From contig CAZEUJ010000002.1 in the NCBI GenBank assembly GCA_964514525.1, forward strand, positions 1 to 34,142: a stretch of DNA of 34,142 nucleotides. Reading direction: 5' to 3'. Of the stretch, positions 1-5,050 are shown piece by piece. Position numbers and translations under genes: made by a program. The DNA is from an uncultured Dehalococcoidaceae bacterium. Lineage in GTDB: Bacteria > Chloroflexota > Dehalococcoidia > Dehalococcoidales > RBG-16-60-22. The notes beneath the pieces are model-generated. The model saw only the letters and a list, made by a program, of their open reading frames with translations. It was not told where the DNA came from and made no database searches. Each line of letters begins with the position of its first letter. The first letter of the stretch is position 1.

Positions 1-694
1 GGATGATGTCCCCGGCGTCGAGCAGCTTGGCGCCGATGTACTTGGCCTTCTTTTCTTCGCCGGCGCAGAGCAGGTTGTAAAACGGCTCGGTTATCATGTT
101 GTTTATTTTGGAAAGGTTGGACTGGATGGAAGAATCTTTCCTCACGTACCTCTGGTTATCGACGAGGAAGACGGCGTCGGCGATCGAGTAGCTGGACTTG
201 AGACAGGTGGCGACGTTAAACATGGTCCTTTCTTCGGTGGTTTCTTCATGCTCGAAGGGAAGGACGATCAGGTTCCAGATCGGCTTATCGATATAGCGCT
301 CTTTCAGGTGCTGCGTGACGATAGAAATAGCGCCCGACCCGGTGCCGCCCGCCGACCCGGCGATGAGCAGGAAGGCGTCCGTTTCGAAGAACCTCTTGGT
401 GGTACGGATGGCGTCTATGATTTTATCGGCGTCTTCCTTGGCAATCTCGGCGCCGAGCTCGTTGATTTTGCCCACGCCGTGGCCGCCCGTCTTGCGGCTC
501 CCGATGAGGATTCTGTGGCGGTGGTCGTTACTGATGCTCGTTAACCCGCTCAGGTCGGCGGCATCCGTATTGACCGCAAAGCAGCCGGTAACAATAGTCA
601 TGCCCCGCCGCCCCTTGGCTCGACTGTTCAACCGGGAGAACTCGTCGGCGATTCTGCCGCCGCATTGACCCAGACCGACAACTACTAATTTCAT
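1..694 (-). CDS. Tubulin/FtsZ-superfamily GTPase, CetZ/tubulin-like paralog A (N-terminal 231 codons; the 3' end runs off the window)
   Basis: Missing from the ORF track because no stop codon lies in the window. Minus-strand ATG at 694-692, preceded by GAGGTG. My translation reads MKLVVVGLGQCGGRIADEFSRLN...TGGHGVGKINELGAEIA...LIAGSAGGTGSGAI...LVDNQRYV...LLCAGEEKK. It aligns without gaps to the N-terminus of the 3878-5050 protein (about 70-75% identity by eye). The tubulin signature [SAG]GGTG[SA]G is present. Confidence 0.85.
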   Translation of the reverse strand, partial: MKLVVVGLGQCGGRIADEFSRLNSRAKGRRGMTIVTGCFAVNTDAADLSGLTSISNDHRHRILIGSRKTGGHGVGKINELGAEIAKEDADKIIDAIRTTKRFFETDAFLLIAGSAGGTGSGAISIVTQHLKERYIDKPIWNLIVLPFEHEETTEERTMFNVATCLKSSYSIADAVFLVDNQRYVRKDSSIQSNLSKINNMITEPFYNLLCAGEEKKAKYIGAKLLDAGDII

Positions 695-869: not shown

Positions 870-898
870 TTGAAAAACTCAGGATTGGATAATATAAT
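870..898 (+). promoter_or_regulatory. Sigma70-like promoter for the 741-aa repeat protein gene
   Basis: TTGAAA (870-875), 17-nt spacer, TATAAT (893-898). AGGAAGG RBS at 931-937, ATG at 946. Confidence 0.6.
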
Positions 899-945
899 AT
901 GTAGGCTATACATGATAAAATACCCCTTCTAGGAAGGTTGGGCTG

Positions 946-3171
946 ATGTCTCCTGATATAAAACAAGACGTAGAAGGCAATATCGACGACTTTCAGAAGG
1001 CGGTGGCCAGGGCTGAGGCGCTGAGTCGGGCAGCCCGGCAGGCGGCCGGTATCTCGACGAAGACCGCCATGGAAATGGCCGCCCGGGCGGAGCAGATAGG
1101 CAAGGAAGCCAGAGAAGCCGCCGAGGCCGCCGCCAAAGCCGCCCAGGAAGCCGTCAGCCGCGCTGAGAAAATCAGCCGCGAGACCAGGGAATCTGCCGAA
1201 GCCGCTATTAAAGCCGCTCAGGAAGCTATCGGCCGGGCGGAAGAGATTGCCAGTAGGCCTAAAGAGACCACAAAAGCGATGACCAGGGCATTCGAGGAAG
1301 CCATCGCTCGGGCGGAAAAGACCAGCGTCGAGGCAATGCACGCCGCGGAGTCGGCGCTGATGTTATCTCAGGAAGGCCTTACCCGTATCGACGGCTTAAG
1401 CCGTGAGGCTAAAAAAACGGCGGAATCTGCCAGAGACGCCTCGGAAGAAGCAGTCACCATGGCCGAGACGACGGTCAAGACGGCCAGGGAAGCCGCGGAA
1501 GAGGCAATCAGAATTGCCAGGGATGCCGCCATAAAGGCTGACCGTTTGGCGCGGGAAGCCAAGGATGCCGCCGATGCCGCTACCAGGACCACCAGGGACA
1601 CGGTGCTCCGGGCGGAGAAAGCGAGTAAATCGACTAGGGAAGCGGCGGACATCTCTGCCAAAGCGGCGGAAGAAGCGGCTGCCCGCGCGGAAACAATCAG
1701 CAAGGTCGCCCGGGAGGTCGCCGAAGCCGCCCAGAGGTCCTCGCAGGAAACCCTGAACAAAATTGACGTAAGCAACCGGGAAGCCAGGCAGGTAACTGAC
1801 GCCCTGCAAAAAGCCTCCCAGGAAACGATGCGTCGGGCTGAAGAGATCGTCCAAGAGACCAAGGCGATAACCGAAGCCGCCATAAAACTGTCTAAGGAAG
1901 CTTCGGCGGCGTCCGTCAAAGCCTCCCACGAAGCCACCGCCAGGGCGGAGACTATCGGTAAGGAAGCCAAAGCCAGCGCGACGTTAGCCGCCGCAGAATT
2001 TAAGGAGGCGGTCGCCAGGGTCGAGCAGATAACCCGGGAAACCCGGGAAATCGCCGAGACTACTCTCAAGGACATTCAGTCAGCGATAGACCAGGCGATG
2101 GAAGAAGGAAAGAAGGTTATGGCTGTAGCCGAAGCATCCGCCCAGGCAGCCCGGAAGTCAGCCGAGACGTCTGCCAGGCAAGCCCAGGAAGCTGCCAGGC
2201 AATCAGTCGAGCAATCGAAGGAAGCCATTACCCGGGCCGAGGTTATCGGTAAAGAGACCACAGGGATGGTCGAGGCATCATCCACCGAGTTCCGCGAAAC
2301 CGTCGCCAGGATGGAAGAGGTAGCTCACGCGGCTAAAGAAGCTACTGAAGCGTCGGCCAAAGCGGCGCAGGATGCGGTTGAGGCATCCATAAAGCAATCC
2401 GAGGAGGCGGTAGCTAAAGCCGAGGAATTGAACCGTTCCGCCAGGGAGACGGCTGAGGAGTCTTTAAAAACCATCAAAGAAGCCATAGGGACCGCCACGA
2501 ACAGCGCCAGAGAGGCTGCCGAGGTTTCGCAGAAGGAAATCCAAGCAGCTATCACCCGCGCGGAGCAGGTCAGCCGCGAGACCAAGGAAGCCGCTCAGGC
2601 CGCGGTGAAGACCGCCCGCGAGGTAACGGGGACTCTCATTAAAGCCGCCCGGGAATCGGCGGAGAGGACGGTCAGAGCGGTCAAGGAAGCGACGGAAGCC
2701 TCGGCCAGAGTTGCCCGGGAGGCGGCCGGAGTTTCCATTACCGCTTTCAGAGAAGCCATCAGCCGCGCCGAGGCCACCGGCCAGGTCGCCCGGGAGACTG
2801 CCGAAGCATCTTTAAAGGCTTACCAGGCCACTCTCCACGAGGGGCGGATCGCCGGGGAAGATGAAGAGCCCGAAGAAGTGACCGAAGTTGAAAAACCGGG
2901 AATCGCTGAAGAACCGCGGAGTAAGGCGGTCGTCGGCTCCGAGGAAGAAGAGGACGATTCTTACCAGCCTACGGAAGCCGCCATCGAGACGATGAAACAG
3001 GCTATGGAAAAGGCAGGCAGTGCCGGCCAGGACGCCAGGGGAATCAATAAGGACACTAAAGGTAAAATGGAATCCCGCCTGGAGTCTTTAGCCAGGATGT
3101 ATGAGACGAAACGGAACGAGCAGGCGAAAAAGGGTCCCGGCGATGAGAACGCCGGTAAGGATAAGGATTGA
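946..3171 (+). CDS. Ala/Glu-rich alpha-helical tandem-repeat protein (741 aa) with an acidic and then Lys-rich C-terminal tail; function unknown
   Basis: Long ORF with an RBS and its own promoter. There is a strong 25-residue periodicity (consensus roughly EA[IV]xRAExI[SG]xExxExAExAxKAAQ). No TM segment or signal peptide is visible. The C-terminus reads GEDEEPEEVTEVEKPG...SEEEEDDSY...KKGPGDENAGKDKD. Confidence 0.85.
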   Translation: MSPDIKQDVEGNIDDFQKAVARAEALSRAARQAAGISTKTAMEMAARAEQIGKEAREAAEAAAKAAQEAVSRAEKISRETRESAEAAIKAAQEAIGRAEEIASRPKETTKAMTRAFEEAIARAEKTSVEAMHAAESALMLSQEGLTRIDGLSREAKKTAESARDASEEAVTMAETTVKTAREAAEEAIRIARDAAIKADRLAREAKDAADAATRTTRDTVLRAEKASKSTREAADISAKAAEEAAARAETISKVAREVAEAAQRSSQETLNKIDVSNREARQVTDALQKASQETMRRAEEIVQETKAITEAAIKLSKEASAASVKASHEATARAETIGKEAKASATLAAAEFKEAVARVEQITRETREIAETTLKDIQSAIDQAMEEGKKVMAVAEASAQAARKSAETSARQAQEAARQSVEQSKEAITRAEVIGKETTGMVEASSTEFRETVARMEEVAHAAKEATEASAKAAQDAVEASIKQSEEAVAKAEELNRSARETAEESLKTIKEAIGTATNSAREAAEVSQKEIQAAITRAEQVSRETKEAAQAAVKTAREVTGTLIKAARESAERTVRAVKEATEASARVAREAAGVSITAFREAISRAEATGQVARETAEASLKAYQATLHEGRIAGEDEEPEEVTEVEKPGIAEEPRSKAVVGSEEEEDDSYQPTEAAIETMKQAMEKAGSAGQDARGINKDTKGKMESRLESLARMYETKRNEQAKKGPGDENAGKDKD
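994..2845 (+). repeat. In-frame tandem repeat region with a 75-nt (25-codon) unit, about 24 units including 11- and 22-codon variants
   Basis: Manual parsing of the translation gives runs of exact 25-residue units anchored on RAE, for example EAVSRAEKISRETRESAEAAIKAAQ / EAIGRAEEIASRPKETTKAMTRAFE / EAIARAEKTSVEAMHAAESALMLSQ. Confidence 0.8.
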
Positions 3172-3303: not shown

Positions 3304-3792
3304 GTGCCTAGCCAGAAAGAACGACCCAAAAAGCCAGAAATTAAAGAAGAAGCTCCCCCTGCGGGGGCTGAGACTGCCGGGGAGCGACCCAAGAGCGCGC
3401 TTGACGAAGTCATGAGCCAGGCCGAGAGGGCTTATGCCGCCTATATGGACGCCGAGCGTCAGGTCGCCAAGGCTTACCATGAGAATGAGATGCAGGTAGC
3501 CAAAGCCTATAAGCGGGCAGAAGCGCAGTCGCACCGGGCTTACGAGGCCACCGTGGCGCAGGCGATGAAAGACCGCGAGCAGGCGTTGGCTAAAGCCGCC
3601 AAGACCCGCGAGGATTTGATGCGGCGCGCCGAGGAGGCCTACCAGGCCGCCGTTCAAGCGGCTTCTAACGCCTGTGATGTGGCTATTGCTGAGGCTACCA
3701 GGGTCCGCGACGAACATGTCGAGAAAGCCTGGAAAGTTCGCGACGAGACCATCGAGCAGGCCTGGCAAATCTATTCCAAGATAGCCAGATAA
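3304..3792 (+). CDS. Small helical protein with a basic/Pro-rich N-terminus followed by eleven 11-residue (hendecad) repeats; function unknown
   Basis: GTG start with a strong AGGAGG RBS. Residues 41-161 parse exactly into 11 x 11 residues: ERAYAAYMDAE RQVAKAYHENE MQVAKAYKRAE AQSHRAYEATV ... EKAWKVRDETI EQAWQIYSKIA. Confidence 0.8.
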   Translation: MPSQKERPKKPEIKEEAPPAGAETAGERPKSALDEVMSQAERAYAAYMDAERQVAKAYHENEMQVAKAYKRAEAQSHRAYEATVAQAMKDREQALAKAAKTREDLMRRAEEAYQAAVQAASNACDVAIAEATRVRDEHVEKAWKVRDETIEQAWQIYSKIAR

Positions 3793-3877: not shown

Positions 3878-5050
3878 CTAAAGCAGCGAGGGAATGTCCT
3901 TTATCGTGATATCAATCCCTCGCTGCGTGCTTACCAGGCCTTCCTGGCGCTTCTTCAGTTCGGCGATGAGATTGATCGCTTTGGTGAAATAGCCCCTTAC
4001 CTTTTCCACGTCGCTCATTTCGGAGAGTATGACGGTGACATCCAGATTGCCTTTCTCCCTGGGGTAATCGCCGCTCCTGATGATCGCTTCCGGGGCTATA
4101 TTTTTTATGTAGGTACCCAGCTCTTTAATCAGGTCGACGTTGATTTCATCGGCCGGAGCGGACACGAGGTACAGGGCCCTCTTGGAGTCCAGCGGATTGC
4201 ATTTGATGGATAGCCCGCTGATGGCCTCATCGAGCGCGCGGGTGCCCTTTTGCGTTTCCGTGGCTTTGTCCCGGAAGTTGCGCGTCCGCATGAAGGTCTT
4301 AAAAATCGAGGTCTGTGACCGTCCGTAGCCCAGGGTCGTCCAGCCCACCAGTGTCTGGATGATGTCGCCGGCATCGAGTATCTTGGCGCCGATGAACCGC
4401 GACTTTTTTTCTTCGCCGGCGCAGAGCAGGTTGAAAAACGGTTGTACGATGGTGGTATTTATCTTGGCCAGATTGTGCGTGAGTGACGAGTCTTTCATCA
4501 CGTATCTCTGGTTATCGACGAGGAATATGGCGTCCGCCACCAGGTAGCTGGATTTGAGGCAGGTAGCCACGTTGTAAACGGTCCTGTCCTCGGTCAATAC
4601 CTCGTGCTCGAAAGGCAGGACTATCAGGTTATAGACCGGCCGGTCGACGTAGCGTTCCTTGATTTGCTGCGTCATTACCGGTATTGCCCCGGAGCCTGTG
4701 CCGCCGCCGGCGCTGGCGATAAGTAGAAAGGCGTCCGTTTCTGCGAAGTTTTCGGTGTTTCTTATCGTGTCGATGACCATGTCGGCGTCTTCGTGGGCTA
4801 TCTCGGCGCCGAGCTCGTTGATTTTCCCCACGCCGTGGCCGCCGGTCTTTTTCTTGCCGATGACGATACGCTGGCTGAAATCGGGCTTGATGGTGTGCAG
4901 GCCGCTCAGGTCGGCGAGGTCGGTATTGACCGCATAGGCGCCGGGGACGATATTGAGTCCGCGCAGGCCGCGGGCCCTTTTATTCAGGCGGGCGAACTCA
5001 TCGGCGATTCTGCCGCCGCATTGCCCGAAGCCGACAACTACTAGCTTCAT
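3878..5050 (-). CDS. Tubulin/FtsZ-superfamily GTPase, CetZ/tubulin-like paralog B (full length, 390 aa)
   Basis: N-terminal MKLVVVGFGQCGGRIADEF (T1 loop GQCGG, as in tubulin GQCGN). Also GGHGVGKINELGAEIA, ASAGGGTGSGAI (tubulin-type GGGTGSG rather than FtsZ GGGTGTG), LVDNQRYV, LLCAGEE and a C-terminal GDYP motif. From memory these resemble archaeal CetZ. GAGGGTG RBS. Confidence 0.88.
   Translation of the reverse strand: MKLVVVGFGQCGGRIADEFARLNKRARGLRGLNIVPGAYAVNTDLADLSGLHTIKPDFSQRIVIGKKKTGGHGVGKINELGAEIAHEDADMVIDTIRNTENFAETDAFLLIASAGGGTGSGAIPVMTQQIKERYVDRPVYNLIVLPFEHEVLTEDRTVYNVATCLKSSYLVADAIFLVDNQRYVMKDSSLTHNLAKINTTIVQPFFNLLCAGEEKKSRFIGAKILDAGDIIQTLVGWTTLGYGRSQTSIFKTFMRTRNFRDKATETQKGTRALDEAISGLSIKCNPLDSKRALYLVSAPADEINVDLIKELGTYIKNIAPEAIIRSGDYPREKGNLDVTVILSEMSDVEKVRGYFTKAINLIAELKKRQEGLVSTQRGIDITIKDIPSLL

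Follow-up and report, generated by a model that had tools for sequence, protein, structure and literature searches.

A stretch of 34,142 nucleotides (nt) from an uncultured Dehalococcoidaceae bacterium (contig CAZEUJ010000002.1, assembly GCA_964514525.1, positions 1 to 34,142; this whole stretch is referred to here as the window) carries near its 5' end a gene for a 741-amino-acid (aa) protein, called REP in this work, that consists almost entirely of 25-residue repeats and lies between two genes for CetZ-like tubulins. The locus raises the question of what kind of protein REP is and what it does beside such genes. We found that the REP gene is real and conserved and that its product is almost entirely helical, with a 25-residue repeat. 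We conclude that REP is probably a structural protein, not described before, that partners a tubulin-like skeleton of bacteria, because in the wall-less Dehalococcoidales it is nearly always encoded beside genes for archaeal-type, CetZ-like tubulins. The open reading frame (ORF) and its repeat array are the following:

946 to 3171, forward strand: REP ORF encoding the 741-aa repeat protein, with an ATG start and the stop codon counted in.
997 to 2829, forward strand: helical repeat array, residues 18-628, 20 units of 25 residues and 10 inserts of 11 residues.
997 to 1896, forward strand: strictly 25-spaced N-terminal block, residues 18-317, defined by the unit's hidden Markov model (HMM), the indel map, and Fourier analysis.

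The initial annotation covered positions 994-2845, i.e. residues 17-634 of REP, and described at least 17 exact 25-residue units interrupted by departures of 11, 22, and 36 residues. The period was borne out by BLOSUM autocorrelation of REP residues 1-640 compared with 500 shuffles, where the strongest signal was obtained at lag 25 (z=16.4) and recurred at lags 50 (z=12.7) and 75 (z=10.2). Signals were also present at lags 36 (z=10.5), 11 (z=9.3), and 14 (z=6.1), with lower values at lags 7 (z=4.8), 29 (z=3.4), and 51 (z=-0.7). An HMM trained on ten clean REP units placed the unit starts at residues 18, 43, and so on up to 293, giving 11 successive spacings of exactly 25, after which the spacings are 36, 25, 47, 25, 25, 36, 22, 25, 11, 22, 11, and 25. 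All departures from 25 are multiples of 11, and residues 18-627 sum to 20x25 + 10x11 = 610. With 16 spacings of exactly 25, the parse matches the annotated number of units; it also reproduces the three annotated departures and adds a spacing of 47 (25+22). The annotated unit start, E[AGT]xxRAE, proved too narrow, its strict form occurring only 8 times, whereas the degenerate form [ED]xxx[RKM][AIVM][ED] occurs 19 times compared with 1.7 +/- 1.3 times in shuffled sequences.

The consensus of 370 full units from 60 orthologs is EAIsRAEeIS[RK]EA[KR]EAAEAAx[KR]A[AS]Q, with apolar or small residues at positions 3, 6, 9/10, 13, 16/17, 20, and 23/24, that is, with the spacing 3-4-3-4-3-4-4. The REP unit reads as two heptads and one hendecad (7+7+11), which together make seven turns. 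Isoleucine or valine provides the bulk at positions 3 and 9, with alanine in the middle of the face. When this consensus is drawn on a 100.8-degree helical wheel, the small/apolar face spans ~160 degrees, and the remaining surface is formed by Glu, Arg, and Lys and is rich in i/i+4 opposite-charge pairs. Positions 1-11 of the unit resemble positions 12-22 (E-A-x-x-x-A-E-x-x-x-[KR]), so that an alternative reading of the unit is 11+11+3, which explains the signals at lags 11 and 14.

In the Fourier analysis of apolar residues in REP positions 18-627, one period dominates, 3.585 residues per turn; its power is 485 on the Kyte-Doolittle scale as compared with 62 +/- 9 (maximum 86) in shuffles. 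This value is consistent with the ratio of 610 residues to 170 turns, 3.588, and the two parts of the array differ slightly, the period being 3.570 (25/7) in residues 18-292 and 3.600 in the 11-mer-rich residues 293-627. In 36-residue sliding windows, the phase of the apolar seam drifts smoothly, without jumps, within about +/-120 degrees; therefore, the seam never circles the helix once in 610 residues. Such behaviour of the seam is the signature of a putative nearly untwisted, non-heptad coiled coil, and the single period and jump-free phase uphold the geometry proposed in the initial annotation. At the textbook value of 1.5 A per residue, the array would be ~91 nm long if fully extended.

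Comparison of REP genes revealed that the array is conserved in detail. Of 41 related genomes, 36 encode an ortholog, as do 23 of the 24 genomes of the same family. The 60 complete distinct orthologs range from 517 to 852 aa, and the period is kept in all of them (lag-25 z from 11.7 to 23.5). Their unit spacings are most often 25 (718 cases), followed by 11, 36, 47, 22, and 50. In an alignment of 50 orthologs, nearly all indels in the rod are of 11, 14, 22, 33, or 66 residues, with one of 29, and no indel occurs before REP residue 287; such quantised indels, with none in the early part, are expected from a register-sensitive coiled coil. The frame is under purifying selection, the ratio of nonsynonymous to synonymous substitution rates (dN/dS) being 0.10-0.28 rather than about 1 in 20 ortholog pairs with 80-96% identity. 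Within REP, units share 35% identity at the amino acid level and 50% at the DNA level, whereas units at the same position in orthologs are 56% identical (49% in the 24 most distant orthologs), and Tandem Repeats Finder detected no 75-bp repeat in the REP DNA. The array is therefore old and maintained, as previously annotated, because its units are positionally orthologous and diverged, dN/dS is low, and no DNA-level repeat is present. A recent tandem expansion is ruled out by the missing DNA-level repeat together with the positional orthology of units.

Searches in general databases assigned REP to no described family. No relatives were identified in Pfam (E<=0.1), NCBIfam, or, by Foldseek with the REP model, the PDB, and the Pfam scan listed only BORCS6 and Alanine_zipper, both below their own cut-offs. 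A profile search of the PDB retrieved de novo designed helical bundles and, weakly, helices of chemoreceptors and hemolysin E, matches that we take as compositional. A word-indexed homolog search with the REP tail (residues 625-741) and an exact-sequence cluster look-up with REP and its order-level orthologs gave no match. When 1.84 billion representatives were searched with a profile, 302 matches were obtained at E<=1e-3, only one of them at E<=1e-30; the matches are mostly short proteins, probably fragments, and are uninformative on wider relatives.

The composition of REP is dominated by alanine (23%) and glutamate (16%), with arginine, lysine, and threonine at 8% each and D+E+K+R together at ~35%. 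Cysteine and tryptophan are absent, and six of the seven prolines are in the C-terminal tail, the seventh being the invariant P105. The REP sequence has no hydrophobic N-terminus, signal peptide, or transmembrane segment, and the protein is best explained as a cytoplasmic structural protein. Three further parts of REP are characterized by their conservation or predicted structure:

1222 to 1410, forward strand: the most conserved stretch of the rod, residues 93-155, from the columns of the ortholog alignment.
2836 to 2967, forward strand: disordered acidic, proline-containing linker, residues 631-674, from structure prediction; the least conserved part of REP.
3052 to 3129, forward strand: C-terminal helix, residues 703-728, from structure prediction and alignment, with a basic patch before it and an acidic end after it.

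In the conserved rod stretch, residues E99, P105, F116, A119, A123, E124, A130, M131, E135, S141, and A155 are invariant, and its F-[EQ]-x-A-x-x-R-A-[ED] part is retained in order-level orthologs. The invariant P105 (nt 1258-1260) lies mid-way in the predicted long helix and may be a kink or a recognition site. At the other end of the protein, the acidic tract and Lys-rich tail noted in the initial annotation are present in the translation after the repeats. The tail consists of (i) a basic patch, (ii) the sequence [IM]-E-x-R-L-[ED]-x-L-[AS]-[KR]-M-Y-E, and (iii) an acidic end. Within the tail, the motif R711-L712-x-x-L715-x-x-M718-Y719 (nt 3076-3102) is invariant, and this RLExLxxMY tail is retained in the order-level orthologs of genomes G033 (441 aa) and G027 (628 aa). 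The invariant helix is likely a docking peptide, because such elements classically consist of a short amphipathic helix, invariant in sequence, that is carried by a disordered linker. A giant REP-like protein of 1613 aa (lag-25 z=21.4; L097:3873-8714, reverse strand, on G092:C114) has no RLExLxxMY tail, and no CetZ-like gene is present on its 11.4-kb contig.

Structures were predicted with AlphaFold2 (AF2) in monomer runs that used one shared alignment of 50 orthologs. For REP (mean predicted local distance difference test score, pLDDT, 61; predicted template modelling score, pTM, 0.21), the model contains helices 13-225, 230-434, and 442-630, followed by the disordered acidic linker 631-674 (pLDDT 30-33), a short helix 675-691, and the helix 703-728, whose core (residues 711-720, pLDDT 85) is the part of highest confidence. 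For the 517-aa ortholog L058, helices 13-219 and 228-414 were obtained, and then the same tail. The helical nature of the array, as expected by the initial annotation, is thus reproduced over residues 13-630, but the single continuous rod is not, three helices being predicted instead. As AF2 splits the helix at low confidence, the continuous-rod picture rests on sequence periodicity.

The immediate surroundings of REP include two tubulin-like genes, a second repeat protein, and candidate control signals:

2 to 694, reverse strand: CetZ-like tubulin paralog A, N-terminal 231 aa, the gene running off the window edge (Pfam Tubulin 4e-32); divergent from REP.
870 to 898, forward strand: promoter-like site TTGAAA-17-TATAAT, a consensus match only.
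within 870 to 938, forward strand: Shine-Dalgarno-like site AGGAAGG, 9 nt 5' of the ATG, a consensus match only.
3304 to 3792, forward strand: HEN162, a 162-aa hendecad-repeat protein directly 3' of REP.
3878 to 5050, reverse strand: CetZ-like tubulin paralog B, 390 aa, ending with KDIPSLL (Pfam Tubulin 1.9e-32, CetZ_C 4.5e-18); convergent with REP and HEN162.

The full cassette, CetZ-like(-) / REP(+) HEN162(+) / CetZ-like(-), was found at 53 of 90 loci, the others being mostly cut by contig ends. HEN162 was undetectable at four loci, all of them with short REP genes: in the subclade of L045, L049, L053, and L058 (REP of 517-653 aa), no HEN162 homolog was detected between REP and the CetZ-like gene. 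For a survey of the class, we used an even sample of 201 Dehalococcoidia genomes and thresholds of E<=1e-8 for REP and E<=1e-30 for CetZ-like proteins. REP was identified in 15 of these genomes and CetZ-like proteins in 34, and every genome with REP has a CetZ-like gene. In 12 of the 14 REP genomes other than the host of the window, REP converges on a CetZ-like gene within ~2 kb, whereas other neighbours vary; the convergent gene pair persists at the order and class level. A putative binding of the REP tail to the neighbouring tubulin-like proteins fits this conserved synteny. Both CetZ-like paralogs end with KDIPSLL (window 3881-3901, reverse strand; L002:107-1279, reverse strand), and a canonical FtsZ of the same genome has ELDMPSYLRQ near its C-terminus; the CetZ-like tails thus resemble the FtsZ C-terminal partner-binding peptide.

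The genome containing the window (G000) also encodes two canonical FtsZ proteins (G000:C10:14710-15669 and G000:C16:20930-21910), which rules out the cassette as a replacement of FtsZ. Five REP-bearing genomes (G000, G005, G027, G033, and G236), four of which are at least 95% complete, gave no match to the peptidoglycan gene mraY (TIGR00445), which is present in 3 of 5 CetZ-negative members of Dehalococcoidia. Given the two canonical ftsZ genes and the lack of a detectable mraY, the cassette appears to be an extra tubulin-family system of peptidoglycan-free cells and not a division ring. Two canonical FtsZ paralogs are likewise encoded in G005, G006, and G033; together with two CetZ-like proteins, two FtsZ proteins make an archaeon-like set of four tubulin-family genes in a bacterium. 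CetZ-like proteins have been reported in Chloroflexota-Dehalococcoidia (Santana-Molina et al. 2023, PMC9871819), and our literature search on CetZ in Dehalococcoidia returned nothing beyond that study except one unrelated monograph.

The same 25-residue repeat occurs in other proteins of the lineage. A word-indexed search with whole REP retrieved only PAS histidine kinases with E ~1e-6 (P0002-P0006), which have the layout REC-PAS-...-HisKA-HATPase and an A/E-rich, 25-periodic PAS-to-HisKA linker of 340-390 residues. Units of these linkers start with QEA[IV]A[KR]AE, their lag-25 z is 15.5-16.5, and their departures from 25 are of 18 residues. Such linkers are also present in kinases of the family-level relatives G010 (L098, G010:C8; z=15.3) and G001 (L099, G001:C10; z=8.6), and over all these kinases they comprise ~280-390 residues, or roughly 40-60 nm when stretched out. 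The match of the kinase array to REP (phmmer E about 1e-6) as mere composition was rejected, since the linkers carry a genuine 25-residue period. The two arrays share the A/E-rich 25-residue unit but differ in that the kinase array is an internal linker from sensor to kinase with departures of 18, whereas REP has departures of 11 and no enzymatic domain. In histidine kinases, the helix entering the DHp domain forms a parallel dimeric coiled coil. Because the kinase arrays occupy the PAS-to-HisKA position, this analogy gives indirect support to the idea that the 25-mer array could run as a parallel two-stranded coiled coil.

Another protein with this period, of 609 aa (L093:8143-9972, forward strand; G000:C10:20142-21971), contains 52% Ala+Glu, has lag-25 z=11.1 and a C-terminal transmembrane helix, and is encoded ~5 kb from a canonical ftsZ (L093:2588-3826, reverse strand). 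A 138-aa ORF downstream of it shares its N-terminal motif KPLP[QE]ILDE, and weak REP-like matches were found at a similar distance from ftsZ in G005 and G006. This 609-aa protein may be a tail-anchored coiled-coil partner of FtsZ.

What, then, could REP do beside the CetZ-like genes? With moderate confidence, we propose that REP molecules self-associate into a nearly straight coiled-coil rod of non-heptad type, which works with CetZ-like filaments and docks via the C-terminal helix. The ~610 residues of the array would form one very long amphipathic alpha-helix, in which an Ala-centred, Ile-edged apolar seam recurs every 25 residues and seven turns (7+7+11), and the 11-residue, three-turn inserts would lift the mean periodicity to ~3.59 residues per turn. 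We infer that these helices would self-associate into a rod, most likely a parallel dimer, ~90 nm in length if fully extended. The rod may serve as a scaffold, bundler, or tether for filaments of the adjacent CetZ-like paralogs, with the RLExLxxMY helix on its flexible acidic linker as the docking element, and a plausible role of such an assembly would be that of a shape or membrane skeleton in bacteria without peptidoglycan.

Several observations weigh against this proposal. The AF2 model breaks the rod near residues 226-229 and 435-441 (pLDDT <50, pTM 0.21), and in L058 the break is at the same alignment position as the REP break near residue 225. A core dominated by alanine, as in REP, would be unusual if the coiled coil is parallel and two-stranded. 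The 25-residue unit measures ~37.5 A at 1.5 A per residue as compared with the 40-44 A subunit spacing of tubulin-family polymers, which makes a simple lattice of one unit per subunit unlikely; this arrangement was rejected, as the mismatch reaches one subunit after ~7 units of the N-terminal block. The linkage of REP to CetZ-like genes is convergent or divergent and does not form a single operon. In many Dehalococcoidia, CetZ-like genes also occur without REP: in family f32, for example, all five genomes have CetZ-like genes and none yields REP at E<=1e-8, and inspection of three CetZ-like loci without REP showed no A/E-rich gene nearby. CetZ-like proteins therefore need no REP.

These points lend some weight to other explanations. 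REP may be a former of filaments or meshworks of the intermediate-filament-like, Scy/FilP, or crescentin type, making a skeleton of its own that is co-regulated with the CetZ-like genes and does not bind their products. A long non-heptad coiled-coil rod with non-helical ends is indeed typical of bacterial intermediate-filament-like proteins, REP has its own promoter-like site, and the 1613-aa homolog has neither the C-terminal motif nor a CetZ gene on its contig. Nevertheless, the pairing of REP with a CetZ-like gene outlasts the other neighbours across the order and class, and the invariant, flexibly tethered C-terminal peptide resembles an element for docking more than a motif for assembly at the rod end; we thus regard an independent filament system as unlikely. 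A structural alternative compatible with either function is a fold-back antiparallel bundle of two or three helices, of the 'Alacoil' type and ~30 nm long, resembling spectrin or the arms of EzrA. The AF2 helices are of similar length (213, 205, and 189 residues in REP; 207 and 187 in the 517-aa L058, with its break at the equivalent position), and a wide Ala-centred apolar face of ~160 degrees with isoleucine at both edges would suit close antiparallel packing. We rank the fold-back below the rod because the breaks have pLDDT <50, with pTM of 0.21-0.22, the two models share one alignment and hence are not independent, and the apolar phase remains smooth through both break points. Moreover, ortholog length differs by as much as 66 residues in the middle and C-terminal parts but is constant over the first 287 residues, which a bundle with equal arms would not tolerate. 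Such a bundle therefore seems quite unlikely.

Even less probable is that REP is a surface-seeking amphipathic helix of the 11-mer type, as in late embryogenesis abundant (LEA) group 3 proteins, apolipoproteins, alpha-synuclein, or perilipins, that lies on membranes or acts as a stress hydrophilin without a specific link to tubulins. REP has an 11-residue sub-period (lag 11 z=9.3) that is subordinate to lag 25, the 11+11+3 reading, an apolar face of small residues (Ala/Thr/Ser), and a highly charged composition. However, the profile check against such families proposed in the initial annotation was negative, with no Pfam match of REP at E<=0.1 to LEA_4, Apolipoprotein, Perilipin, or Synuclein and no match in NCBIfam, and the strict length register, the invariant P105, F116, and M131, and the pairing with CetZ-like genes would be unexpected for a generic hydrophilin.

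The proposal of a docking rod can be extended to a more specific model, which we put forward as doubtful in its full form. REP may be a bacterial analogue of microtubule-associated proteins, a straight ~90-nm ruler or lateral binder whose RLExLxxMY tail, and possibly whose invariant segment 93-155, docks onto hetero-polymers formed by both CetZ-like paralogs. It would set how long or how widely spaced a tubulin-based cortical skeleton is, or how this attaches to the membrane, and the skeleton would shape the wall-less Dehalococcoidales cells. The 25-mer module would then have been re-used in the kinase linkers and in the tail-anchored protein near FtsZ.

CetZ-type tubulins have been studied as cell-shape proteins of archaea and are not known to have a partner protein. 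In the bacteria considered here, which lack peptidoglycan, two CetZ-like genes remain tightly linked to the gene of a highly unusual rod protein with an exact period. Should the rod bind or organise the filaments, REP would count as the first accessory factor for cytoskeletons of the CetZ type and would provide a handle on shape maintenance in wall-less bacteria. The 25/7 + 11/3 architecture would also offer structural biologists and designers of coiled coils a clear natural case of one that is nearly untwisted and changes its length, in evolution, by steps of three turns.

Comparison of REP with known systems delimits its place among helical and cytoskeletal proteins. Its mean period of 3.585 and modest lag-7 signal (z=4.8) differ from those of a canonical heptad coiled coil (3.5 residues, 7/2), and its apolar Fourier peak of 10.2 as compared with a null maximum of 2.6, along with a D+E+K+R content of only ~35% beside 23% Ala, distinguishes it from single alpha-helix (ER/K) domains, which are dominated by E/K/R and have no apolar seam. 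Helical and coiled-coil partners that act on tubulin/FtsZ-family polymers or are encoded near their genes include BtubC/Bklc of Prosthecobacter btubAB, EzrA and ZapB of FtsZ, and TubY of TubZ, and REP has no Pfam match to any of them. BtubC has TPR repeats, which REP lacks; REP is ~10x longer than ZapB; and EzrA has an N-terminal transmembrane helix and spectrin-like repeats, both absent from REP. An EzrA-like regulator of FtsZ was rejected on these grounds, as REP has no hydrophobic N-terminus, no Pfam EzrA match, and no Foldseek match. Gene contexts of archaeal tubulin-like proteins hold unknown genes, mostly with coiled-coil regions (PMC9871819); the REP family, its 25-residue repeat, and the conserved pairing are not described in that study.

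Among proteins that accompany cytoskeletal polymers, SF-assemblin is microtubule-associated and has a 29-residue repeat (PMC2119799). The repeat of SF-assemblin and beta-giardin consists of four heptads and a skip, and these proteins are eukaryotic and have no homology to REP. REP does not belong with them, its lag-29 signal being z=3.4 compared with z=16.4 at lag 25, with no Pfam match. Tropomyosin offers a possible functional analogy: it is a long, periodic coiled coil that runs along a cytoskeletal polymer and whose core has Ala-rich stretches. Its coiled coil is heptad-based, with a supercoil that follows the actin helix, and its ~39-residue pseudo-repeat matches actin subunits, whereas the REP unit of ~37.5 A mismatches the 40-44 A tubulin-family subunit. 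The Streptomyces protein Scy has a 51-residue repeat forming 14 turns ('CC51', Walshaw, Gillespie & Kelemen 2010, J Struct Biol 170:202, as described in PMC3718342). REP is not a CC51 protein (lag 51 z=-0.7), its period being 25 over 7 turns plus 11-mers, with a mean of 3.585 as compared with 51 over 14 (3.64) in Scy and FilP. Scy and FilP belong to another phylum, have no detectable sequence relationship to REP, and are linked to DivIVA or ParA and not to CetZ-like proteins. What Scy and FilP share with REP is the design: a very long bacterial cytoskeletal rod with a regular non-heptad repeat, in which mixed heptad- and hendecad-like spacings would give a weakly supercoiled coiled coil.

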